Source: Actinomycetota bacterium
GTDB lineage: Bacteria; Actinomycetota; Acidimicrobiia; Acidimicrobiales; CAIXPF01
Direction of reading: 5' to 3'
Assembly (NCBI GenBank): GCA_016870475.1
Contig: VGBO01000003.1
Location: 5,800-69,799 of the forward strand
Length of the DNA stretch: 64,000 nt
Shown: positions 9,744 through 57,530 of the stretch, one piece after another
Numbering within the stretch: the stretch's first letter is position 1
How the letters are laid out: every line of letters begins with the position of its first letter
Position numbers and translations under genes: made by a program
The notes under the pieces: generated by a model
Told to the model about the DNA's origin: nothing
What the model saw: only the letters and a program-made list of their open reading frames with translations
Databases searched by the model: none

Positions 9744-10508
9744 TCAGATGGACTGCGACAGCAGCTGGCGGTTCTTCCGCTTCGACTTCACGTAGTCACG
9801 GTTCATCATCGCGATGAAGTCGACCGAGATCTCCTTCGGGCACGCGTCCTGGCATTCGCCGTGGTTCGTGCACGAGCCGAAGAACTGCTCCATCGTCTCG
9901 ACCATCGCCTCGGTGCGGGCCCAGCGTTCCGGCTGGCCCTGCGGCATGAGGTTGAGGTGGGCGAGCTTGGCGGACGTGAAGAGCTGCGCCGCGGAGTTCG
10001 GGCAGGCGGCCACGCAGGCGCCGCAACCGATGCACTGCGCGGCGTCCATCGAGGCGTCGGCGACCGGCTTGGGGATCGGGATCATGTTCGCGTCGATCGC
10101 CGATCCCGTCGGCGCCGAGATGTACCCGCCGGCCTCGACGATCCGGTCGAACGCCGACCGGTCGACTGCGAGGTCGCGGATGACCGGGAAGGCTGCTGCC
10201 CGCCACGGCTCGACGGCGATCGTGTCACCGTCGCTGAACTTCCGCATGTGGAGCTGGCAGGTCGCCGTCCCTCGTTCGGGACCGTGCGCGACGCCGTTGA
10301 TGATGACGCCGCAGCTCCCGCAGATGCCCTCGCGACAGTCGTGATCGAACACGATCGGCCGGTCACCGGACTCGGTGAGACGGCCGTTCACGACGTCGAG
10401 CATCTCGAGGAAGGACATTTCGGGTGACACGCCCGGCACGTCGACCACCTGGAACCCGCCCTTGTCGGAGGGGTTGTCCTGTCGCCAGACCTTGAGGGTG
10501 ATCCGCAT
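9744..10508 (-). CDS. sdhB: Succinate dehydrogenase / fumarate reductase iron-sulfur subunit
   Basis: ATG at 10508 ([11 protein letters not shown]). Three Cys clusters: [22 protein letters not shown] and [12 protein letters not shown]. Confidence 0.9.
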
Positions 10509-13485: not shown

Positions 13486-14262
13486 GTGGAACTTCGGGAC
13501 CGTGTCGCGGTGATCACCGGGGGTGGCGGCGGGATCGGGTCGGCGGTCGGTCGCCGGTTCGCCGCCGAGGGGGCGCGGGCGGTGGTGCTCGTCGACCGCG
13601 ACGCAGCCGCGGCCGAGGCGGCGGCCGCACAGCTCGGTCTCGGCGAGCGCGGGTTCGGGGTCGGCCTCGACGTCACCGACGAGGCGGCGGTGGTCTCCCT
13701 CGTGGAGTCGGTGCTCGACCGGTTCGGGCCGATCGACGTGTTCTTCTCGAACGCCGGTGCCGGCGCCGACGGAGGCGTCGAGGCGTCGAATGCGGCGTGG
13801 CAGCGGCAGTGGGACCTGCACGTGATGTCGCACGTGTACGCGGCTCGGGCCGTGCTGCCCTCGATGGTGGCGCGGGGTGAGGGCTATCTGCTGCACACGG
13901 CGTCGGCGGCCGGGTTGCTGCTCGCGATGGGCAGCGCGCCCTACAGCGTGACGAAGGCGGCGTGCATCAAGCTCGCCGAGTACCTGGCGATCAGCCACGG
14001 CGACGACGGCATCCGGGTCTCGGTGCTGTGCCCGCAGGGGGTGAACACCGCGATGGCCCCCCGCCAGCTCGGCGACGGGGCGACGGACGGGATCAAGGAG
14101 CCCGACGACGTGGCCGTCGCGGTCGTCGAGGCGATGCGGGAGGAGCGGTTCATGATCCTGTCGCACCCCGAGGTCGGTGAGTACGTGCGGCGCAAGGCGA
14201 TCGATCCGGATCGCTGGCTGCGCGGGATGCGACGCCTACGGGGTCGTTCGCTCGACCGCTGA
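13486..14262 (+). CDS. SDR family oxidoreductase
   Basis: ORF track 258 aa. TGGGGGIG cofactor motif, NAG, and catalytic YSVTKAA (YxxxK). Confidence 0.85.
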   Translation: MELRDRVAVITGGGGGIGSAVGRRFAAEGARAVVLVDRDAAAAEAAAAQLGLGERGFGVGLDVTDEAAVVSLVESVLDRFGPIDVFFSNAGAGADGGVEASNAAWQRQWDLHVMSHVYAARAVLPSMVARGEGYLLHTASAAGLLLAMGSAPYSVTKAACIKLAEYLAISHGDDGIRVSVLCPQGVNTAMAPRQLGDGATDGIKEPDDVAVAVVEAMREERFMILSHPEVGEYVRRKAIDPDRWLRGMRRLRGRSLDR

Positions 14263-14336
14263 GAGGGCCGAAGGTCCCGTGCTCTCGGGACCTCCGACCA
14301 CTGCGCCGGATCGGACCGCCTCCGTACCGTCGACCC

Positions 14337-14597
14337 ATGGCACTTGCGCAGATCGACATGGCGGCCGACGAGATGCTCGAGCCGGAGGACCGGGCGTTCG
14401 TGCGGACCACGGCGCTTGGCGTCCTCGTCGGCGTCGCGGTCGTGTTCGGGCTGATCACCCTCGCCGTGCAGATCGTCGCCGGCGGTCTCGGGTGGTGGTA
14501 CACGCTCGGCGTGGCGACGTTCGCATCGGTGGTGACCGGCGGGTTCTTCGGTGGCGTGGTGTTCGCCTCACGCCACCTCATTGTCCACGGCCACTGA
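14337..14597 (+). CDS. Small membrane protein, hypothetical
   Basis: ORF track 86 aa with two clear hydrophobic helices (LGVLVGVAVVFGLITLAVQIV; VATFASVVTGGFFGGVVFA). Confidence 0.5.
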   Translation: MALAQIDMAADEMLEPEDRAFVRTTALGVLVGVAVVFGLITLAVQIVAGGLGWWYTLGVATFASVVTGGFFGGVVFASRHLIVHGH

Positions 14598-46932: not shown

Positions 46933-47196
46933 TCATCGGTGATCCCTGTGGTCGTGTTGCCGGTGGCTGCGGGTGGCGACGGGCCGCCCGGCGAGTTCGC
47001 CAACGGCGTGCAACACATGATCAGGCACCACGGCTCGCGGTGGGTCGACGTGCCCGGTCGCCGGGTCGATCACGATCGTCACGGCGCCGCGCCGGATGCG
47101 GACTCGCCCGTCGACGAGCAGCGTGAGAGTGTGTTCGACGCGACCTTGGCAGTCGAGCAACTCGGCGCCCGCAAGGTAACGATCGAGGTCACTCAT
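46933..47196 (-). CDS. Hypothetical protein with a His-rich C-terminus
   Basis: ORF track 87 aa ending SHRQHDHRDHR. Lies 129 nt downstream of palindrome copy A. No family recognised; it may be a relic. Confidence 0.3.
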   Translation of the reverse strand: MSDLDRYLAGAELLDCQGRVEHTLTLLVDGRVRIRRGAVTIVIDPATGHVDPPRAVVPDHVLHAVGELAGRPVATRSHRQHDHRDHR

Positions 47197-47324
47197 GTCG
47201 GCCGACCGCCTGATCGGGGGCGACGCACTCGGTCGCCCCGAACGAGATGTTCGATGCTTCCGGAGGTGGTCTCCAGGCGCGGCCCACGGTTGACATGCAA
47301 CGACATGGGCAGATTCTAGCTGCG

Positions 47325-47343
47325 AATCGGAACGATTCCTATC
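47325..47343. promoter_or_regulatory. Metal-cluster palindrome, copy A
   Basis: AATCGGAA CGA TTCCTATC. Confidence 0.4.
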
Positions 47344-47372
47344 GACCGGTCGGCGATCCGTGGAGCGTTTTG

Positions 47373-47828
47373 TCAGGAGGCGCAGTCGGCGCAGATCCCG
47401 ACGGCGTCGAGTCGGTGTCCGGTCGGCCGGAACCCGGTCTTACTGAGCGCCCTTTCGAGGGCCGCTGCGAGTGACCGCTCTGTGCTCGCCGGCACCACGA
47501 AATCGTCGATCGAACCGCACTCGATGCAGATGCTGTGGTGGTGGTGGCCGATGAGGTCCTCGTCAAGTTCGTAACGAGTGTGCTCATCGGTACCAATGAC
47601 CTTCTGCACGACACCGACAGCTTCGAGGTCGGCCATGTTCCGGTACATCGAGCTGAGTGTCAGCTTGGGTCGTTGCTCGACGAGTTCGGGCATGGTGGCC
47701 GGTCTGGACAGCCCAGCGAGCAGCCCGACGAGTTCCCGCCGTCCTTTGGTGAAGACGAGTCCGGCAGCGCGAACTCGTTGCTCCGCGAGCTGATGAAGTT
47801 CGCTCGTGTCGACGGCCATGCCGACCAT
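47373..47828 (-). CDS. Fur-family metalloregulator (Zur-like)
   Basis: ORF track 151 aa (alternative ATG at 47819). Winged-helix N-terminus, then HHHHSICIECG and CADC (a CxxC...CxxC structural site plus a His cluster). Confidence 0.85.
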   Translation of the reverse strand: MVGMAVDTSELHQLAEQRVRAAGLVFTKGRRELVGLLAGLSRPATMPELVEQRPKLTLSSMYRNMADLEAVGVVQKVIGTDEHTRYELDEDLIGHHHHSICIECGSIDDFVVPASTERSLAAALERALSKTGFRPTGHRLDAVGICADCAS

Positions 47829-47852
47829 GATACGCCGGTGTCAACGATTTTG

Positions 47853-47871
47853 AATCGGAACGAGTCCGATC
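47853..47871. promoter_or_regulatory. Metal-cluster palindrome, copy B
   Basis: AATCGGAA CGA GTCCGATC, 25 nt upstream of the Fur-family gene ATG at 47828. Confidence 0.45.
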
Positions 47872-48031
47872 TCACGCCCAGGTTGGTGGCATCGAAAGCG
47901 GTGACGGGACCAGGTTATGACGAGTTCGCCGAGGACCTGGTCGGGGTGATGCCGATCGATCGGCAGCGATGCTTGCCGCCCGAAACGTCACGTGGTCGTA
48001 CTGGCGATCGGATCCGCCCAGGGGCACCGGT

Positions 48032-48953
48032 TCAGACCGAGGCGGAGAATGCTGTCGCGGTGCACGTGATGGTGAAGCCGAGTCGCTCGTACAGCCCGAG
48101 AGCGGAGGTGTTCGCAGCATCGACGAACAACATGGCCCGCTCGATCCAGCGGTCACGAAGGGACCGCAGGCCGGCCTCGGCCAGGGAGCGACCCACACCG
48201 CGGCCGTGATGGGTTGGCCTCACCGCGAGGACGTAGATCTCGCCGATCGGCGAGCTTGGCGAGCGGTGAACCTTCGTCCAACAGAATCCGAGCATGGTGC
48301 CGCAGTCGTCGACGTGAAGCAGCAGCCCGGTCGGATCGAACCAATCGCTGGCGAAGCCAGCCTCGAGTGACGCGTGTGTTCAGTTGCCCTGGTCGGAATG
48401 ACGCTCGAAGGCCAGGTTGTTCACCTCGAGGAGTGCTGATTCGTCGACGCCTGCCACGAACTCGCGGGTGGGGAGCGTTGGGCGCGTCGGGGCGGCGCCG
48501 AGTTGCGTCTGCATCTGGTGCAACTGACGCGTTGGCAGCAAGCCATGTCGTTCGGCGGTCGCCCGATCGGTGGCGGTGGCCTCGTGACACCACCACCGCA
48601 CGCTCCGGGCGTTGCGCGCGGACCCACTCGATAGCAGCGCCACACGCGGTGTCGAGAATGCGGGCACGATCGGCGCGGCTGTGAGGATCGACTGCGATGT
48701 CGAGGGTCTAGGTGGTGGAAGGTTCCGCCGTGGGAGTCGCCTGTGCGTATGCCGCAGGGTTCAGCGATCGATCGAGAACGGCGAGCGCTCGTGCGATGAG
48801 CGTCCGATGAGTGGCTGCGCTCAACGCGTGGTCACTGAGCGGGGGTCGGCCATCGACGTCCTGGCATCGATCGAGCAGCTCGCGAACCGACGACCGGCTG
48901 ATCGCGTCGAATGCGTCGATGTCGATGACCGAGTACGGCGATGGCGCGGTCAT
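48032..48953 (-). pseudogene. mshD: Mycothiol synthase (MshD)-like GNAT acetyltransferase, disrupted
   Basis: Three collinear pieces. (1) 48953-48711 MTAPSPYSVIDIDAFDAISRSSVRELLDRCQDVDGRPPLSDH..., then an in-frame TAG at 48708. (2) LDIAVDPHSR..., with a frameshift near 48610-48650 into ...VRWWCHEATATDRATAERHGLLPTRQLHQMQ...LLEVNNLAFERHSDQGN, then a TGA at 48380. (3) THASLEAGFASDWFDPTGLLL...MLGFCWTKVH...GEIYVLAVRPTHHGRGVGRSL. Confidence 0.7.
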
Positions 48954-49768
48954 GTGCGTCGGCGCAAGGTCGTCACGGTGGCGACTGCGAAGCAGGCCAC
49001 GGTGACCAGCGCAATGGTCGGGCCGGGCGGGGTGGCGAGGTGATAGCTGGCGGTGAGACCAACGAGCGCGGAGAGCACTCCGATTGCGATCGCGACTGCG
49101 GTCATGGTCTCGATTCGCTGCGTCAGGAGGCGTGCGGTCGCCGCTGGGGTGATGAGCATCGCAACGCTCATCAGCAGCCCGACGGTGCCGAGACTGACGA
49201 CGACGGTGATGGAGATCAGCACGATCAGCACGAGCCGTAGCGGACCAACCGGGATGCCCACCTGACGGGCGTGGCCGGCGTCGAAGGTGACGTTGCGCAG
49301 ATCGGAGAACGTGAATGCAACGATGCACAAAGCCACGGCCGTCAACCCGCTGTTGACGATGATGTCGCTGCGTGTCGTGGTGACGATCTGGCCGAGCAGG
49401 AAGTGGGTGAGGTCGACGCCGATGCGGTCGTTGCGCGAGATCAGGATGAGGCCTGTTGCGAACATCAGCGTCTCGGCCACTCCGATGGCGCTGTCGTGTC
49501 CGAGTCGTCGCTGCCTGTCGAACAAGGCGACCAGGAGCCCCATGGTCACTCCCGCTGCGAGCGCGCCGACGGTGATGCTGATGCCGGTGAGGTAGGCGCC
49601 GGCGACACCAGCGAGGATTCCGTGGCTCATTGCGTCGCCGAGGTAGGCGAGGCGCCGCAGGACGACCCACACGCCGATGGTGGGGGCGAGCACGCCGATG
49701 AGTAGTGCGGTGATTGCCGCGTGCTGCATGAATTGGGTCCGGTAGGGGTCGGTGAACCAGTCGATCAT
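48950..49768 (-). CDS. Metal (Zn/Mn) ABC transporter permease, ZnuB/TroC-like
   Basis: ATG at 49768 overlaps the ATPase stop (ATGA). MIDWFTDPYRTQFMQHAAITALLIG...LAYLGDAMSHGILAGVAGAY. 272 aa, polytopic. Confidence 0.85.
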   Translation of the reverse strand: MIDWFTDPYRTQFMQHAAITALLIGVLAPTIGVWVVLRRLAYLGDAMSHGILAGVAGAYLTGISITVGALAAGVTMGLLVALFDRQRRLGHDSAIGVAETLMFATGLILISRNDRIGVDLTHFLLGQIVTTTRSDIIVNSGLTAVALCIVAFTFSDLRNVTFDAGHARQVGIPVGPLRLVLIVLISITVVVSLGTVGLLMSVAMLITPAATARLLTQRIETMTAVAIAIGVLSALVGLTASYHLATPPGPTIALVTVACFAVATVTTLRRRT

Positions 49769-50520
49769 GCGGCGCTGCTCGATCTGGGGGCCGTGCCGAA
49801 GGTGGCCTCGATGTGATCGGAGTCGAGTGCCTGCCCGGGTGGGCCGTCGCCCACGAGCCGCCGGTTGACGGCGAGGCAGCGACTGAACCGCCTGCGGGCC
49901 AGCGAAAGGTCGTGTGTGGCGACCAGGAGGGACGTGCCAGACGCAGCGAGGTCGGCGAACAGGTCGAACAGGGCTTCGGTGCGGGGTTCGTCGACACCGC
50001 TGAGGGCTTCGTCGAGCAGGATCAGGCGGGCTTCCTGGGCGAGTGCGCGAGCCAGGAAGGCGCGCTGCATCTGACCGCCTGACAGCGTCCCCAGTGGACG
50101 CCGGCGCAGATCGGCCAATCCGACGCGTTCGAGTGCGTCGTGCGCGGCTTGACGGTGCCGTTGGCCGGGTCGTTGCCCGAGGCGCAGGAACCTGCGTCGG
50201 CCGGCGAGTACGAGCTGGCCGACGGTGATCGGGAAGTCGACGTCGAGATCGCTGCGCTGGGGGATGTAGGCCGCTCCGAGCCGGTCGCGCTGATGGTGGC
50301 AGTGGTTGCCGCACAGCTCGACCGAGCCGTGGTGGTTGACGAGTCCGCTGATGGCTTTGAACAGCGTCGATTTACCGGCACCGTTGGGGCCGACGACGGC
50401 GATCAGCTCACCGACGTCCACCTGGAACGACACGTCAACGAGTGCCTCGGTGGCGGGCGGGTAGGTGACGCCGACCCCTGTGAGCTGCAGGATCGGATGG
50501 TCTCGAGGTGCGTCGTTCAT
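49765..50520 (-). CDS. Metal ABC transporter ATP-binding protein, ZnuC-like
   Basis: ATG at 50520 overlaps the binding-protein stop (ATGA). GPNGAGKSTL, LSGGQMQRAFLARAL and LILLDEALSGVD. Confidence 0.9.
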   Translation of the reverse strand: MNDAPRDHPILQLTGVGVTYPPATEALVDVSFQVDVGELIAVVGPNGAGKSTLFKAISGLVNHHGSVELCGNHCHHQRDRLGAAYIPQRSDLDVDFPITVGQLVLAGRRRFLRLGQRPGQRHRQAAHDALERVGLADLRRRPLGTLSGGQMQRAFLARALAQEARLILLDEALSGVDEPRTEALFDLFADLAASGTSLLVATHDLSLARRRFSRCLAVNRRLVGDGPPGQALDSDHIEATFGTAPRSSSAA

Positions 50521-51488
50521 CCGGCGCATTCGAGGCCGGCTGCGAGCCGGCGCAGGTTGTCACGCATGATCGATGCGTAGGTGTCGCCAGCGTCGAGCTG
50601 GTCCTGGGTCAGGCCCTCGATCGGGTCGAGCAGGTCGAGCTCCGCGCCGATCTCACGGGCGACCGTCTTCGCCAGGTCCGGCGGCGCGATCGACTCCAGG
50701 AAGATCGTGGTGACGCCCTCGGCTTTCGCCTCGGCGGCGATGGCTTTCAGGGTGCGCGGGTCAGGTTCGACATCGGGGGAGATGCCGGCGATCGGGATCT
50801 GGCGGAGGTCGTAGGTGTCGGCGAGGTACCCGAAGGCGCGATGACTGGTGACGATCACGCGTGAGCGGCACTTGGCCAGGCCGGCGCGGTACTCGCGGTC
50901 GAGCCCGCGCAGGTCGGTCAGATACGTCTCCGCGTTGGCGCGGTACGTGTCAGCGTTGTCCGGGTCGATCTCCGCGAGCGTGTTCGTGATGGCGTCCACC
51001 ATGGTGATCATCCGACTCGGGTCGAGCCACACGTGCGGGTCGACGTCGCCCTCCAGCACCTCACCGTCCACCTCGCCCTCAGTACCGGCGAGTTGCTCGT
51101 CGACCCCAAGGAGATCGACCGAGTCGAGGAGGTCGAGCCGGGTCACGCCTGCTGGCGAGTTGGCGAGTGCGGCCTCCACCTGCGGCTGGAACCCGCGGCC
51201 GAGATAGATCACCACGTCGGCCTCTTCGAAGGCGCCCATCTGAGCCGGCTGTAACTCCAAGTCGTGAGGTCCCTGCCCAGGCGGCGTCAGATCGGTCACC
51301 GAAACCAGGTCGCCGCCCACGCCCCTGGCCGCCTCGCCGAGGGGATAGAACGCGGCGAGCACGGTCAACGTCGGCTGCGAGCCACCCGTGTCGTCGCTAC
51401 CGCACGACGCAACAACCAGGCTCGCCGACACGGCGAACATGGTGAGGGAAGTGCGGATCGGCCGGATGCGGAGCGGAGAAGATCTCAT
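50517..51488 (-). CDS. Metal ABC transporter substrate-binding lipoprotein, ZnuA/TroA-like
   Basis: ORF track 323 aa. Lipobox VVASCG. Cluster A-I hallmarks GQGPHDLELQP, DPHVWLDP and VTSHRAFGYLA. The flexible loop is acidic rather than His-rich (EGEVDGEVLEGDVD). Confidence 0.85.
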   Translation of the reverse strand: MRSSPLRIRPIRTSLTMFAVSASLVVASCGSDDTGGSQPTLTVLAAFYPLGEAARGVGGDLVSVTDLTPPGQGPHDLELQPAQMGAFEEADVVIYLGRGFQPQVEAALANSPAGVTRLDLLDSVDLLGVDEQLAGTEGEVDGEVLEGDVDPHVWLDPSRMITMVDAITNTLAEIDPDNADTYRANAETYLTDLRGLDREYRAGLAKCRSRVIVTSHRAFGYLADTYDLRQIPIAGISPDVEPDPRTLKAIAAEAKAEGVTTIFLESIAPPDLAKTVAREIGAELDLLDPIEGLTQDQLDAGDTYASIMRDNLRRLAAGLECAG

Positions 51489-51504
51489 GGCCGCATCGTA
51501 TCAG

Positions 51505-51523
51505 AATAGGACAGATTCCGATT
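51505..51523. promoter_or_regulatory. Metal-cluster palindrome, copy C
   Basis: Reverse strand reads AATCGGAA TCT GTCCTATT. Lies 17 nt upstream of the binding-protein ATG (51488) and 111 nt upstream of the divergent ArsR-family gene. Confidence 0.45.
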
Positions 51524-51633
51524 TGATAGCCGATCCGTTCTGTGGGTCGCTGGGTGAGGCGGTGCACGGTCAGTTGCGCGGTTCGCACGAATCGACGCTG
51601 GACGATGACCCAACCGAGCAGACGCGTGCACAC

Positions 51634-51963
51634 ATGCGAATGTATGCATATGAGCGAGAGGTGACGTCGCCTCCCCCGGTCTCGATCGCTCGGGGTGCCG
51701 AGCTGCTCAAGACTCTGGGCAGCCCGGTTCGACTCGGGGTGATCTTGCAGCTGCAGGCTCACGGTGAGCAGTGCGTGCACGAGTTGGTGGCCTCACCCGA
51801 GGTGTCCCAGCCACTCATTTCGCAGCATCTTCGGGTGCTTCGCGACGCGCGGCTCATCGTCGGTCGGCGCGCTGGCAAAGAGATCCGCTACTCGATCGCA
51901 GACGATCACGTCTCACACATCGTTCACGATGTAATTCGACACGCCGAGGAGGAACTTCCATGA
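51634..51963 (+). CDS. ArsR/SmtB-family metalloregulator with an intact alpha5-type site
   Basis: ATG at 51634 inside track ORF 51388..51963. HTH LGSPVRLGVILQL...CVHELV...SQPLISQHLRVLRDARLI. C-terminal IADDHVSHIVHDVIRHAEEE gives D-x-H, then H 11 residues later, then x-x-E, as in SmtB/CzrA alpha5 Zn sites. Confidence 0.85.
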   Translation: MRMYAYEREVTSPPPVSIARGAELLKTLGSPVRLGVILQLQAHGEQCVHELVASPEVSQPLISQHLRVLRDARLIVGRRAGKEIRYSIADDHVSHIVHDVIRHAEEELP

Positions 51964-52109
51964 CCATGACACATACGGTCCACGACGACCATCAGCACGA
52001 GCACGGCCCCAACTGTGGCCATGCCGCGACCGAGCACGACGGCCACACGGACTACTTCCACGATGGTCACGTGCATCACCAGCACGACGGTCATTGGGAC
52101 GAGCACTGA
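51960..52109 (+). CDS. 49-aa histidine-rich metal-binding peptide
   Basis: ATG at 51960 overlaps the ArsR stop (ATGA) and follows GAGGAGGAA. MTMTHTVHDDHQHEHGPNCGHAATEHDGHTDYFHDGHVHHQHDGHWDEH has 15 His, 10 Asp/Glu and 1 Cys. Confidence 0.6.
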   Translation: MTMTHTVHDDHQHEHGPNCGHAATEHDGHTDYFHDGHVHHQHDGHWDEH

Positions 52110-52162
52110 CTTGTCGGTGCCACCGGCCAGCTGAAGGTGCACGCCCTCACTGGGAAATCGCC

Positions 52163-52570
52163 TCAGCTCCGCAGCCCTGACAACGCGACGCTGACACTCG
52201 GTGGGGTCGAGCCGTTCGAGAACACCCGTGCCGCGACCGCTGCCGGGGCCGGGGTGACGGCGTCGGCGGCGATCCAGTCGCAAAGCTGGTCGACGATCTC
52301 GTCGTCGAGCACACCACCGACCCAAACACGATCAGTCGAGATCCCGGCCGGTCGCACGATCACGACGTTCGACCGCTCGCACGCGCCGACGCACCCGACG
52401 ACCCGGCTTCGACCGCCCGCGGAGACGGCGGCAGCGTCGATGCGCTCGCGGATGGCCGCGTGGTCGACGCCGGGGTGTTTGCGGTCGGTACCGCAACAGC
52501 ACCCGTCGCACACCTGGACCCGAATGTTCAACCAGCGTTCTCGACGGGCTGCACCAGAGCGTGTCGTCAC
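52163..52570 (-). CDS. Cys-rich thioredoxin-like [2Fe-2S] ferredoxin-like protein
   Basis: GTG at 52570 overlaps the WD40 stop (GTGA). VQVCDGCCCGTDRKHPGVDH...VVGCVGACERSNVVIV. 135 aa. The longer 340-aa track ORF is a read-through. Confidence 0.65.
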   Translation of the reverse strand: MTTRSGAARRERWLNIRVQVCDGCCCGTDRKHPGVDHAAIRERIDAAAVSAGGRSRVVGCVGACERSNVVIVRPAGISTDRVWVGGVLDDEIVDQLCDWIAADAVTPAPAAVAARVFSNGSTPPSVSVALSGLRS

Positions 52571-53616
52571 CGCTGCTCCAGCGACGTCTCGTGAACAGGT
52601 CGACGTTCCAACGTGCCATCGGCGCGTCCGACAAGGAGCGAGCCGCCTGCGGGATGCCAGACGACCGTGGCGACGGCGACGTCTCCGTTGTGCACGTCGT
52701 CGGGTGTCAGCGGTCGCTTGACCGTGCGTGGCGACGGCCAGAGCGCGAGGCGGCCGTCGGCGCCCCCACTGCACAGTCGCGTGCCGGCGGGTTCCCAGGC
52801 GAGGCAGCTGATGTGCCTTTCGTGGGCGTTGCCGGTGGCTGGCCTCGTTCCCTTCGGGCCCTTGCCCGAGAAGTCCCACACGGTGAGCTCGTCGAGGCAC
52901 GCCGAGGCCATCCAGTGGCTGTCGTCGCGGAAAGCGAGGTGCTGGATCTTGGCGGGGTAGCCCGACATCGAGAGGTCGTCGCCCGACCACAGCCGCCACA
53001 GATGGATGCTCGAGTCCTGGAACCCGGCGCACGCCCACTTGCCATTCGGTGCCAGCACGAGCGCGAGTGGTGACCCCTTGAACTGGTGAGTTCGTGACGG
53101 CGTTCCGGCGTGCAGCCGTTCGGGGTCGTACCAGGTGATGCCCCCGTACGAGGTGACACCGATCCGTTTGCCATTCGTCGCCCACGCGACCGCGGTGATC
53201 GTCGACGAGACCGCCGGATACCGCTGGAGCCTTGCCCCGTCACGGTCGCAGAGAACGAGGTGCCGTCCGTCTGCCACCGCCAGGAGCGCACCGTCGGGCG
53301 ACCAAGCGACATGGGGGATCCATGCCGTCCCGAGATGCGCCGCCAGCTCGTGCCCTGTTCGGTCGTAGACGCGGATCACGCCGTCCTGGCCGCCGATCGC
53401 GAGTCGCGAACCGTCAGGCGACCACGCGCCGCACAGCACACCCATCGGGTGCTCCGCCAACTTGCAGACCACCAAACCATCGACCGTGACGATCGCCGCA
53501 TCGCCTCCGAGCGAACCGGCGGCGAGCAGATCTCCGTGCGGAGAGATAGTCAGTGCTGTGACGTAGTCGCCGAGCTGCATCTCCCATTCGACGGGGCCGA
53601 TCATCGGACCAGACAC
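52567..53616 (-). CDS. WD40 repeat beta-propeller protein
   Basis: ORF track 349 aa. An alternative ATG at 53604 forms ATGA with the upstream stop. Seven to eight repeats of the type xAWSPDGxxLAxGGxDGxIRVYD. Confidence 0.8.
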
Positions 53617-54590
53617 TCCCGGAAACTGCGCTCCAACGCAGCACGTTCGAGGTTGCGGCCGATGAACACCAGCTTGTTGCTGCGCGCCTCATCTGGCCGC
53701 CATGGTCGGTCGGCTTGACCGTCGAGGAGCATGTGCACGCCCTGGAACACATATCGCTCGTTCATGCCGGCAATCGACAAGATGCCCTTGGAGCGAAAGA
53801 TGTCCGTGCCCTGCTCCGCGAGAAGTCGTCCGAGCCACTTGTTCAGCCGATCGCCGTCCAGATCCCCGTCGGCCTGGATGCCGACCGAAGTGACCGTGGC
53901 GTCGTGCTGGTGTTCGGCATCAGGATCGAGGAACGCCGGGTCGTCGATCAACACACGATCGAGATCGAATGCGCCCACGTCGAGGATCAGGTCGAGATCC
54001 ACCTGACCGTGGCTCGTGTGGATGAGCGGCGCCAATGTGTTGATTTCGCAGATCCGGCGTTCGACCTCGGCGAGCTGAGGGGCGTCGACGAGATCGACCT
54101 TGTTGATCACCACTCGGTCAGCGAACGCCAACTGCTCCACGGCTTCGTTCTCGACGCCGTCGGCCTTGATCTCATCGAGGTGCAGCAGGAGGTGCTTCGC
54201 ATCGACCACCGTCACGATCGCATCGAGCCGTAGCTGTGCCGATACCTCAGGATCGACGAAGAAGGTCTGCGCCACCGGGGCGGGATCGGCGAGTCCGGTC
54301 GTTTCGATCACGATCTGATCGAAACGGTCCTTGCGCTTCATGAGATTGCCGAGGATTCGGATCAGGTCGCCGCGAACGGTGCAGCAGATGCAGCCGTTGT
54401 TCATCTCGAAGATCTCTTCCTCGGCCTCGAGCACGAGCGCGTCGTCGATGCCGACCTCACCGAACTCGTTCTCGATCACGGCGATCCGCTTGCCGTGCTG
54501 CGCAGTGAGGATGTGGTTCAGCAGCGTCGTCTTGCCCGCCCCGAGGAACCCGGTGAGCACGGTGACAGGTACCTTCGAGTCGATTGCCAT
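53601..54590 (-). CDS. COG0523-family GTPase metallochaperone (CobW/YciC/ZigA-like)
   Basis: ATG at 54590 inside track ORF 53601..54671. Walker [13 protein letters not shown], metal motif [14 protein letters not shown], and a C-terminal CobW_C-like domain. Confidence 0.9.
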
Positions 54591-54595
54591 GACGA

Positions 54596-54614
54596 AAGCA
54601 TAACGGGTCCTATT
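54596..54614. promoter_or_regulatory. Metal-cluster palindrome, copy D (weaker left half)
   Basis: AAGCATAA CGG GTCCTATT, 6 nt upstream of the COG0523 ATG. The right half is identical to that of copy C. Confidence 0.35.
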
Positions 54615-54990: not shown

Positions 54991-55464
54991 TCAGCGAGGC
55001 GGGTTGTCGGACATCGTCACCGGGACGTCGAGCGTTCGGCCCGAGGAGAACCGGAGGGTGGCGGTGAAGGTGTCGCCGCTCTCGAGCGGGCCCGCAAGGT
55101 CGACCAGCATGATGTGGTTGCCGCCGGGTCGGAACTTGACGGTTGCGCCGGCTTCGATGACGACTTCGGCGACCTGCTCCATGGTGACGGTGCCACTGCC
55201 GACCGCGCCGTGTTGGTGGCCGTCGCCCCCGGCAGCATCGGATGTGTGGAGCTCGGCACGTCCGGCGATGTCGGTTGGCACGTCGGCAGCGACGAGCACG
55301 TCGCGGACGTCGCTACTGAGCTCGAGGTAGATCACCCCGTTCGTGGCCCCGGCTGGTGTCGGGCGGGCCCAGGCTCCCGACGCACCGAAGGCGATCTGGT
55401 CGCCGCCGCAACCAGCAAGCATCCAGCACGCGACGAACAGAGCGGCGGCGCGGTGCCTCCTCAC
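54991..55464 (-). CDS. Copper chaperone PCu(A)C lipoprotein
   Basis: GTG at 55464 overlaps the upstream stop (GTGA). Lipobox MLAGCGG. AELH...M...GNHIML fits the H(M)x10Mx21HxM motif. Confidence 0.8.
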   Translation of the reverse strand: MRRHRAAALFVACWMLAGCGGDQIAFGASGAWARPTPAGATNGVIYLELSSDVRDVLVAADVPTDIAGRAELHTSDAAGGDGHQHGAVGSGTVTMEQVAEVVIEAGATVKFRPGGNHIMLVDLAGPLESGDTFTATLRFSSGRTLDVPVTMSDNPPR

Positions 55465-56993
55465 GCCTGGCCGAACGTGCGGCGCAGCGGTGAAACGCTC
55501 TGGATGACCAACTTGTCGAATGCAACGATGACCAGCGCGACTGCTGCCCACAGCGGGTAGACGATGCCGAGCAGGACCGCGGCGCCGACGAGCTTCCATG
55601 TCAGGCGTGGGTCGGCGGGTCGGCGTGGGAGGCCGAGGGTGCCGGGCCGGCGACGCCTCCAGAACATGACGAAGGCGCTGATCACCGACCAGATTGACAG
55701 GACACACAGCAGTGTCATGAAAATGCGGCTGACCAATCCGAGCTGGGTGCCCATGTGGGTGCTCACGAGGTAGTCCATGCCGACGCTGATGGTACCGACT
55801 CCGTAGATCCGCTGTTCGTCGAGCGTGGCCCCGGAGAACTGGTCAACGAAGACGTTGCGTGCCTCGCCGGTCTGACGTGGCCACGAGTTGTAGAGCGTGA
55901 AACTGCCATAGACGGGGTTGCCGGCTTCGTCGGTCTCGTTGGCCGGGAACGAGATCGTGTAGCCGGGCTTCATTCCCTCGTCCTCGGCGATGCGTACCGC
56001 ACTGTCGAGGCTCATCGGGGACGGCATCGTGCCATCGACAGCGACGGGGGCATAGCTCGCAGGGATCACGAAGTCGCCGGTCGCCCACGGGATCTGGTTG
56101 CCGAACCGGTCGAGATCGCCACGGGTCGCGCTGGTGCTCGCCGTGTTCTCAGCTGCACTCCCCGGCGTGACCCGTTCGGCGAGAGAACTGAACCCGTCCG
56201 CCCAGTACGACGACCAAGCCATCCCGGACACGATCGTGAGCACCATGACCGGGATCATGACGAACCCGGTCAGACCGTGCAGGTCACGCCAACGTGCCCG
56301 TCCCCCGGCTGCCCACCTGACGCCGATCAACCGCCGTGCACCCTTGGAACCCTGGCTCTGACTCGACCGCCGCGGCCAAAACAGGTACAGCCCTGAACCG
56401 ACCAGCACCAGAGTCCAGACGCCGAGGACTTCCAGGACCAGATCACCCACGACGTACTCACGCATCACCGGTCCGTCGCTCCACAACGCCGCGACCGCAG
56501 GCAGCGTGACGGTGAGCGAGTCGTTGTTCAGGAAGCCGTGCAGACGATTCGACAGCCCGATCACTGCACCGCCAGGCTTCGAGACCCCGAGCACCTCAGC
56601 GGTGTAGGGGTCGACGAAGACGTGGAGGCCGCTGGCGCTGCCGTCATCGACGAAGAACCGTGTGGTCGCCTCCCGATCCGCTGGCGGGGTCAGATCGGAC
56701 ACGGTGCCGTCGGGGTAGGCGGCTGCAACAGCCTCTGCCTGCTCGTCGAACGACACGTACTCGGTCGAGCGCGATTCGGTCGAGCGGATGTCACCCTCGG
56801 TCGCTTGTTGGATCGGATCGGTGTACAGGATGACCGGACCTGTGACCGCCATCAGCAAGATGAACGGCATGGCGAACATGCCCGAGTAGAAGTGCACCCG
56901 CCACAACGAACGCCACTGACGACTCGACGAATCCCCGGACGACGCTGTCGGCGAAGTCGCCTCATCCCTGTTGGTCACGTTCGGCTCGCTCAC
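55461..56993 (-). CDS. PepSY-domain / PepSY-associated TM helix membrane protein
   Basis: GTG at 56993 is preceded by GAGGAG, inside the 653-aa track ORF. WRSLWRVHFYSGMFAMPFILLMAVTG, WRDLHGLTGFVMIPVMV and C-terminal TM helices. Confidence 0.75.
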   Translation of the reverse strand: MSEPNVTNRDEATSPTASSGDSSSRQWRSLWRVHFYSGMFAMPFILLMAVTGPVILYTDPIQQATEGDIRSTESRSTEYVSFDEQAEAVAAAYPDGTVSDLTPPADREATTRFFVDDGSASGLHVFVDPYTAEVLGVSKPGGAVIGLSNRLHGFLNNDSLTVTLPAVAALWSDGPVMREYVVGDLVLEVLGVWTLVLVGSGLYLFWPRRSSQSQGSKGARRLIGVRWAAGGRARWRDLHGLTGFVMIPVMVLTIVSGMAWSSYWADGFSSLAERVTPGSAAENTASTSATRGDLDRFGNQIPWATGDFVIPASYAPVAVDGTMPSPMSLDSAVRIAEDEGMKPGYTISFPANETDEAGNPVYGSFTLYNSWPRQTGEARNVFVDQFSGATLDEQRIYGVGTISVGMDYLVSTHMGTQLGLVSRIFMTLLCVLSIWSVISAFVMFWRRRRPGTLGLPRRPADPRLTWKLVGAAVLLGIVYPLWAAVALVIVAFDKLVIQSVSPLRRTFGQA

Positions 56994-57530
56994 GGTGTTC
57001 GCTCTCCTCGGTGGGGTTGGCGGGTTCGCAGGGCCCTTGCACCTGACGGGTAGACCGGCGTGCGGTTCCAAAAGTTCCCTCGTGCTCCCGGCGTTGAGCT
57101 TCGGTGGCAACGACGCAATCCCGTCGAACTGTCGACGGGGCCCGTGGTCGACTTGCGCAGCGCCGATCCCCGGGGCCTCGGTGAGGTCCCAGGTCTGGGC
57201 GAACTCGTCGGTGGTGTAGGTCATGTCGACGGCAGCCTCGAAGGACAGTCGTCCGGGTGGGCAGCAGTCATCGACGCGTTCCGTCGTCGCCGGGTTGTCG
57301 AGGCTGGCATCCACGGCATCGCGCACCGCTACCCAGGCGCCCACCAGGTCGGTCTCGACAGATAGAAGGTCGGTGTCTCGATGCCCGCACGCTTCGAGCA
57401 GGGCCTCGGCCCTGGGATCCACTCAACGAGATGCCGCACGACGCTGCAAGACGTCTCGCGCCGCCCATCCTGGACACGGTGACAGCGGTCGACCTGATGA
57501 GTCAGGACGTTCGCCGTCACTTGCACGTAT
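56994..57530 (-). pseudogene. DinB/MDMPI-like (mycothiol-dependent maleylpyruvate isomerase N-terminal domain family) relic
   Basis: SPCPGWAARDVL at about 57450-57485, an in-frame TGA at 57423-57425, then VDPRAEALLEACGH...TYTTDEFAQTWDLTEAPG. There is no own stop, so it runs in frame into the PepSY gene. Confidence 0.35.

Follow-up and report, generated by a model that had tools for sequence, protein, structure and literature searches.

Zur proteins belong to the Fur family, and their operators have been described in several bacterial groups. The Zur box of Streptomyces coelicolor is a 7-1-7 palindrome, tGaNNatSatNNtCa, and a 21-bp consensus, taaTGaNAANNNTTNtCANta, is available for the znuA genes of 17 actinobacteria (PMC5472717). 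The Zur box of the Bacillus group, TAAATCGTAATNATTACGATTTA, is a 9-1-9 palindrome with the half-site AATCGTAAT (PMC2706843, PMC6336718), and the classical Fur box, AATGATAATNATTATCATT, is likewise 9-1-9 (PMC2706843). Zur boxes described elsewhere overlap the −35 and −10 elements, with repression by promoter occlusion (PMC2706843). We found no paper on Zur in Acidimicrobia in the literature searched. Here, we analyse a stretch of 64,000 nucleotides (the window) from an Actinomycetota bacterium of the order Acidimicrobiales (assembly GCA_016870475.1, contig VGBO01000003.1), in which four 19-bp palindromes are found within a cluster of metal-related genes. The window corresponds to the JGI freshwater metagenome contig 3300021376 Ga0194130_10000612 and, thus, stems from an uncultured actinobacterium. 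We conclude that these are very probably Zur boxes, bound by a dimer of the Fur-family protein encoded at 47373–47819 and acting by zinc-dependent promoter occlusion.

A preliminary description of this DNA reported four copies of a single pattern, AATCGGAA-N3-KTCCKATY (in full AATCGGAANNNKTCCKATY). Direct reading of the region confirmed the sequences and coordinates of all four palindromes, which are real. Site A (47325–47343, AATCGGAACGATTCCTATC), site B (47853–47871, AATCGGAACGAGTCCGATC) and site C (51505–51523, reverse strand, AATCGGAATCTGTCCTATT) match the pattern without mismatches, whereas site D (54596–54614, AAGCATAACGGGTCCTATT) departs from it at three positions, every one in the left half. 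On the reverse strand, sites A and D read GATAGGAATCGTTCCGATT and AATAGGACCCGTTATGCTT, respectively. An extra left half-site, TCTCGGAA, lies 6 bp upstream of site D, reaching 54620, and the orthologues of D in related genomes carry it too. All four sites are intergenic and upstream of metal-related operons, at distances from the genes that agree with the earlier figures to within 1 nt. Site B is 24–25 nt from the ATG at 47828 of the Fur-family gene, 16 nt separate site C from the znuA ATG at 51488 and 110 nt from the start of an smtB-like gene, and site D is 5 nt from the ATG at 54590 of a COG0523 gene. Site A lies 29 nt past the stop codon of the Fur-family gene and 128 nt ahead of the ATG of an 87-amino-acid (aa) open reading frame (ORF).

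The number of matches in the window exceeds the expectation by a wide margin. Three positions match the symmetrised pattern RATMGGAMNNNKTCCKATY exactly, and with up to two mismatches, four were found against 0.71 expected; the observed counts were reached by none of 100 shuffles. We also scanned the 64 kb with a weight matrix built solely from sites of related genomes. The four sites took the top four positions (A 27.5, C 25.5, B 21.3 and D 15.3), and apart from them, no position in the window scored above 12. In 200 Markov-simulated windows, the maximum score had a mean of 9.2 and a 95th percentile of 14.0, while scores of at least 20 were observed three times in the window against 0.005 expected. 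At the scores of the four sites, chance would be expected to produce no match.

To describe the motif, the preliminary description used an 8-3-8 geometry. It is better read as the 9-1-9 form of the Fur family, AAT-CGG-AAY-N-RTT-CCG-ATT, within the frame AAT-xxx-AAY-N-RTT-xxx-ATT, because A occupies position 11 in nearly all cases, with C or T at position 9. In this form, it has the features that define Zur boxes, namely an imperfect palindrome of 19–21 bp, arranged as 7-1-7 or 9-1-9, with an AA(Y)-N-(R)TT centre. The actinobacterial Zur box has the same length and symmetry centre and the same targets (znuA, zur, COG0523 and ribosomal protein paralogues lacking Cys). The preliminary description held that only an AA-N-GATT core was shared with it; the outer AAT/ATT and the inner AA-NNN-TT of taaTGaNAANNNTTNtCANta are in fact also kept. 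The difference lies at half-site positions 4–6, which are CGG in the window (AGG in nearer relatives) instead of GAN, making the box richer in GC, with approximately 42% G+C in sites A and C. The similarity to the Bacillus-group box extends to the 9-1-9 form and to the identical outer AATCG...CGATT. An idealised version of the motif, AATCGGAAC-N-ATTCCGATT, agrees with that box at 15 of the 18 specified positions, and the actual sites A–C agree at 13 of 18. The idealised half-site AATCGGAAY departs from AATCGTAAT at one or two positions, with G for T at position 6 and C or T at position 9, and the flank of site C, CAAATCGGAAT, compares with TAAATCGTAAT in the Bacillus group. However, the host is a high-GC actinobacterium, and its regulator is only distantly related to Zur of Bacillus subtilis. 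The classical Fur box shares the frame AAT-xxx-AAT-N-ATT-xxx-ATT but has GAT where the present motif has CGG or AGG, and the targets here are zinc rather than iron genes. On these sequence comparisons, the motif is a local, drifted and more GC-rich form of the known actinobacterial Zur box.

We then assessed the conservation of the boxes in related Acidimicrobiia. The sample comprised 80 zur loci, with one genome per species, plus four obtained through exact-protein look-ups (84 loci, 1.38 Mb). Genes were located by tblastn with the window proteins; gene calling based on GC3 (G+C at third codon positions) failed to separate the frames. The 84 loci contain 58 clusters of matrix matches scoring at least 14, and 34 of these lie between −200 and +30 of the starts of zur, znuA/B/C or COG0523, regions that make up 3.2% of the DNA. 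The corresponding binomial p of about 1e-35 is generous, because 12 of the relatives' sites contributed to the training of the matrix; the independent matches far outnumber this training set. Matches in relatives are, thus, enriched upstream of zinc genes.

The closest locus, L211, whose Zur is 90% identical to that of the window, has boxes at the same four positions (before and after zur, before COG0523 and before znuA). A further box takes up the 38 nt that separate the divergently oriented genes of the ribosomal proteins L28 and L31. These two proteins are paralogues without Cys motifs, and the L31 gene is followed by those for COG0523 and WD40. Cys-less ribosomal paralogues adjoining COG0523 are a classical signature of Zur regulons (PMC2706843). 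An orthologue of site A is found after zur in L211 and L011, boxes are present at znuA starts in L211, L214, L014, L012, L017 and L078, and orthologues of site D lie 3–17 nt before the COG0523 start in L211, L011, L012, L016, L018, L020, L021 and L024. In other relatives, a box is located between a gene for a FecCD-type permease and one for COG0523 or for a MoCF_biosynth-domain (molybdopterin-binding) protein. The sites, thus, hold orthologous promoter positions although their flanks diverge, and they stand upstream of genes for zinc acquisition and sparing, including zur itself. A palindrome directly upstream of each zur homologue was absent in most of the distant homologues, probably because zur lies inside operons there.

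These results bear on whether the sites could be chance matches, or a dispersed repeat without a regulatory role. The weakness of site D and the exact matches in many unrelated metagenome contigs, including a chitinase-associated palindrome (AATAGGAAASTTTCCTATT), speak for this, but the shuffles never reach the observed counts, promoter positions are kept while the flanks diverge and all four sites are intergenic near metal operons. The matrix scan, the enrichment and the conserved promoter placement largely refute it, and we consider a chance origin extremely improbable.

As Zur boxes, the sites of this clade show a stepwise change in their half-sites. The half-site is TCGGAA in loci whose Zur shares 68% identity or more with that of the window (window, L211, L011 and L214), TAGGAA at 55–59% identity and TGGGAA or TGAGAA at 54–58%. 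At 51% identity or less, it becomes TGAGAAT...ATTCTCA, that is, AATGAGAATCATTCTCATT, which fits both the actinobacterial consensus taaTGaNAANNNTTNtCANta and the 7-1-7 box of S. coelicolor. Sites with mixed half-sites occur (AATGAGAAT/ATTCCTATC), indicating that the two half-site types are interchangeable. In some relatives, the outer half-sites are 6 bp further apart, as in the perfect 12-1-12 palindrome GATAGGAATGAG-A-CTCATTCCTATC, and such 25-bp arrays can be read as two 19-mers offset by 6 bp. The classical Fur box is also read as overlapping hexamer-based sites with the same 6-bp offset.

The position of the boxes relative to predicted promoter elements was examined on the minus strand, on which the four candidate promoters lie. 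A −10-like hexamer, TATCAT (47827–47832), is found 7 nt before the zur ATG at 47819, a place taken by TATCAT, TAGGAT or TACGCT in relatives. TACGAT (51495–51500) precedes the znuA ATG at 51488 by 6 nt, and TATGCT (54597–54602), inside site D, precedes the COG0523 ATG at 54590 by 6 nt. Each of the eight relatives in which a box is proximal to COG0523 has a TAnnnT hexamer 6–7 nt ahead of the ATG of that gene, and the arrangement of box, TAnnnT and start codon recurs in up to eight relatives per gene. The boxes either overlap these hexamers or sit 4–22 nt upstream of them. Site B, at about −52 to −34, overlaps the −35 (TTCAAA) of the only sigma-70-like promoter match in the region, and its orthologues in L211, L011 and L214 lie 19–22 nt upstream of the −10. 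Site C covers about −35 to −17 of the predicted znuA promoter (−35 and spacer), and site D overlaps the predicted −10 of the COG0523 promoter. Site A lies over the −35 region of a predicted promoter leading to the 87-aa ORF. Its −10-like hexamer, TAGAAT (47313–47318), is 6 nt after the site and 6 nt before an ATG at 47306. A short ORF of 36 codons begins at this ATG and may be the start of a leaderless mRNA; its TGA overlaps the start codon of the 87-aa ORF. Neither this hexamer nor the frame is conserved in L211, and this part of the promoter reading is tentative. These positions agree with the overlap of −35 and −10 elements published for other Zur boxes and fit promoter occlusion. The TAnnnT hexamers 6–7 nt before the start codons also suggest that the zur, znuA and COG0523 mRNAs may be leaderless. 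Leaderless mRNAs are common in Actinobacteria.

The gene identities given in the preliminary description were borne out by Pfam (Fur family, ZnuA, ABC_tran, ABC-3, ArsR HTH_5 and cobW/CobW_C), and NCBIfam agreed with the gene content. The presumed Zur (47373–47828, minus strand; PF01475, E=2e-15) more likely starts at the ATG at 47819, giving a product of 148 aa, because its homologues begin at the residue aligned with M4. It combines the Fur-family fold with the structural CxxC...CxxC zinc site that characterises Zur, as well as an HHHH motif. Both motifs are unvarying, with C101, C104, C146 and C149 present in all of 23 homologues. The homologues of the regulator come from metagenome-assembled genomes of Acidimicrobiia and Ilumatobacteraceae. 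The znuA-znuC-znuB operon (48950–51488, minus strand; Pfam ZnuA, ABC_tran and ABC-3), a zinc ABC importer, is the target of site C. The closest solved relatives of its ZnuA are the zinc-binding YcdH (1.7e-46) and AdcA (1.5e-45), with manganese-binding proteins at about 1e-29 or weaker. The third metal ligand is His in zinc-binding and Glu in manganese-binding members of this family, and in the window protein, it is His.

Several observations weigh against the assignment of the four sites to a zinc-responsive Zur. Site D is degenerate. Every related locus was retrieved via its zur gene, and co-occurrence with zur is, therefore, true by construction. Among solved structures, PerR and Fur come closest to the regulator (E=6e-11 to 3e-9), and FurB of Mycobacterium tuberculosis reaches 1.5e-7. 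No NCBIfam equivalog reached its cut-off for this protein, and the Zur model PRK11639 gave E=0.003. S. coelicolor Zur has a Cys five residues before the HHHH motif, a position held by Glu in the window regulator. An exact-pattern scan of metagenome contigs retrieved at least 120 loci, and chance matches in AT-rich contigs dominate those listed; among the matches listed, the pattern in other lineages flanks feoA, TonB-dependent receptors, ZnuA, fur genes and a catalase beside a Fur-family gene. Its presence at feoA, TonB-dependent receptor and catalase genes indicates that boxes of this class belong to the Fur family in general and do not by themselves point to zinc.

The same Fur-family protein could, then, sense iron, manganese, cobalt/nickel or peroxide, and the sites could be Fur, Mur, Nur or PerR boxes. 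The better matches of the regulator to PerR and Fur than to Zur among solved structures and NCBIfam models and the identical patterns beside iron and catalase genes are in line with this, as is the fact that ZnuA-family binding proteins can carry manganese or iron. Against it, the ZnuA of the window is nearest to zinc-binding proteins, with His where manganese-binding ones have Glu, COG0523 is among the targets, as are the Cys-less L28 and L31 in the 90%-identical relative, and a zinc-type SmtB regulator and a His-rich peptide are encoded in the same cluster. We, therefore, regard a different signal as unlikely. The regulator is not nameable as Zur from its own sequence and owes that assignment to genomic context. 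It is from this context and the targets (the kinship of ZnuA, COG0523 and the Cys-less L28 and L31) that we infer zinc as the signal, with Zur as the binding protein and the transcription start positions likewise inferred.

The preliminary description also left room for the sites being the operators of the neighbouring SmtB-like repressor. This ArsR/SmtB-type regulator and a His-rich peptide are encoded on the plus strand at 51634–52109 (HTH_5/NF033788), divergently from znuA. The regulator (~51634–51963) has the motif DxH-x10-H-xx-E, and its gene overlaps, through ATGA, that for a 49-aa peptide (51960–52109; MTMTHTVHDDHQHEHGPNCGHAATEHDGHTDYFHDGHVHHQHDGHWDEH) with 16 His and one Cys. Site C is situated between the divergent znuA and smtB-like genes, and the GGAA...TTCC core superficially resembles the TGAA...TTCA of SmtB-type operators. 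The operators of SmtB/ArsR proteins are also imperfect palindromes near metal genes, but they are 26 bp long and built as 12-2-12 repeats, such as AATACCTGAACA-GA-TGTTCAAGTATT (PMC8790569). The sites in the window are 9-1-9 with an AAY-N-RTT centre, and site C lies closer to the znuA start (16 nt) than to that of smtB (110 nt). In L012 and L019, the box is missing from the smtB promoter. A 12-2-12 operator was sought near smtB and none was found; the window, L012 and L019 share only an element of their own, TAGCATMTG / TATGCATATG. Furthermore, of the 26 loci that carry boxes, just 2 encode an SmtB-like protein within 10 kb, and induction of zinc uptake by a sensor of zinc excess would be physiologically backwards. 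With the geometry, the box-less smtB promoters and the 24 of 26 loci without smtB, the proposal is unsupported, and we judge it very unlikely. In Anabaena, an SmtB-like gene beside znuABC regulates a metallothionein, while Zur regulates znuABC (PMC8790569), and the layout of the window matches this division of labour. The module formed by smtB and the His-rich peptide is probably outside the control of the boxes.

The earlier suggestion that the palindromes are a dimeric Fur-family operator, possibly a lineage-specific Zur box, is, in turn, supported by their conservation at zur, znuA, COG0523 and the Cys-less L28 and L31, by the half-site drift and by the overlap with promoters. In the mechanism we propose, a zinc-loaded Zur dimer would occupy the 19-bp boxes when zinc is sufficient and would block RNA polymerase, as each box overlaps a core promoter element. 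Site B would occlude the −35 of zur, providing autoregulation; site A, the −35 of the promoter leading to the His-tailed 87-aa ORF; site C, the −35 and spacer of znuACB; and site D, the −10 of the COG0523-WD40-orf135 operon. When zinc becomes scarce, Zur would lose its regulatory zinc and leave the DNA, which would lift repression from the genes for the zinc importer, from the operon of the COG0523 metallochaperone and from zur itself.

The target of site D is an operon of three genes, COG0523, WD40 and a Cys-rich ORF of 135 aa (52163–54590, minus strand; Pfam cobW and CobW_C, WD40), in which the stops and starts of consecutive genes overlap. The COG0523-WD40 pair is kept in nine related loci, and the WD40 beta-propeller gene follows the COG0523 GTPase, with the same overlap of stop and start codons, in every close relative examined (L011, L012, L016, L018, L020–L024 and L211). 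L012 and L211 share with the window a third gene in this operon, the Cys-rich, ferredoxin-like ORF of ~135 aa. Site A presumably has the 87-aa ORF (46933–47196, minus strand) as its target. This ORF ends in a His-rich tail, HRQHDHRDHR, and has no Pfam or NCBIfam match. Homologues of it are found inside the COG0523 operon of L012 (12891–13061), beside and divergent from an ArsR-family gene in L022 (8587–8797) and divergent from zur in L028 (9675–9944). It belongs to a small family without database match, and its homologues always adjoin metal regulators. In L211, the N-terminal half of this ORF is deleted.

We consider it possible, though doubtful, that two things hold together: that an unusual Zur regulon, with COG0523 translationally coupled to WD40 and a Cys-rich ferredoxin-like protein and with a small His-tailed family, is conserved across Acidimicrobiia, and that the series TGAGAAT, TAGGAAT, TCGGAAC would reflect a true change of specificity, co-evolved with the recognition helix (SS[V/A]YRNL to SS[M/L]YRNM), rather than neutral drift. 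The recognition helix as an explanation of the box type was suggestive, but L014 and L017 break the rule, and we make no claim based on it.

Other features of the relatives concern the regulator and its surroundings. L211 encodes two paralogous regulators (14088–14534 and 10001–10456) that share 63% identity and have almost identical recognition helices. A similar box precedes each of them, and the presence of transposase genes in the vicinity suggests that the zinc cluster of L211 was recently duplicated or rearranged. In L012, znuA and zur are separated by a tandem direct repeat, CCATTCAAATCGAACCAGA(G/A)TGG (9915–9975), which contains AATCGAACCA-GAG-TGGTTCCATT, a box-related palindrome with a longer spacer. 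The pair of smtB and His-rich peptide is kept in L012 (13219–13776) and L019 (8118–8687), where the peptide is a tandem duplication of the same unit. The 49-aa peptide of the window has no Pfam or NCBIfam match; it might act as a His-based zinc buffer, similar to metallothioneins and induced when zinc is in excess.

In the window, the GNAT gene after znuB (48032–48953, minus strand) is split over two frames, with a frameshift near 48603–48619 and an early stop at 48708, while its counterpart in L211 is intact and encodes a 307-aa double-GNAT protein; the disruption in the window reflects either pseudogenisation or misassembly. Among the near-identical contigs L001–L010, gene calls vary too. 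Just past COG0523, genes for a PCuAC copper chaperone and PepSY_TM (54991–57422) adjoin the cluster, which, therefore, reaches to copper; no Zur-type box is associated with these genes.

The chitinase-associated palindrome AATAGGAAASTTTCCTATT of high-GC contigs, which matches the pattern, is unrelated to zinc. It takes the form of a perfect palindrome, AATAGGAAA[C/G]TTTCCTATT, often within a 31-bp perfect palindrome such as GAATCAAATAGGAAAGTTTCCTATTTGATTC, upstream of genes for secreted GH18 chitinases and CBM5/12 or ricin-lectin proteins. Among the matches listed, it was found in metagenome contigs with 63–74% G+C (L092, L095, L096, L098, L118, L122, L134, L140, L141, L145, L148, L154, L161, L168, L173, L177, L182, L185, L187, L191, L199 and L202). 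This palindrome seems to serve as operator in a chitin-utilisation regulon of a different high-GC lineage.

The mechanism and architecture described here are those of a well-known system, and the understanding of Zur regulation is unchanged by them. A Zur-box model is now usable for Acidimicrobiia and Ilumatobacteraceae, an abundant freshwater lineage that has been little studied and is known almost solely from metagenome-assembled genomes, and it lets the zinc-starvation regulon be read directly from such genomes. The comparison also shows, within one clade, how a Fur-family operator has departed step by step from the AT-rich box that is canonical for actinobacteria, and it highlights uncharacterised conserved members of the regulon, namely the WD40 partner of COG0523 and the His-tailed small protein. 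These regulon members and the stepwise operator drift are what is most worth following up.

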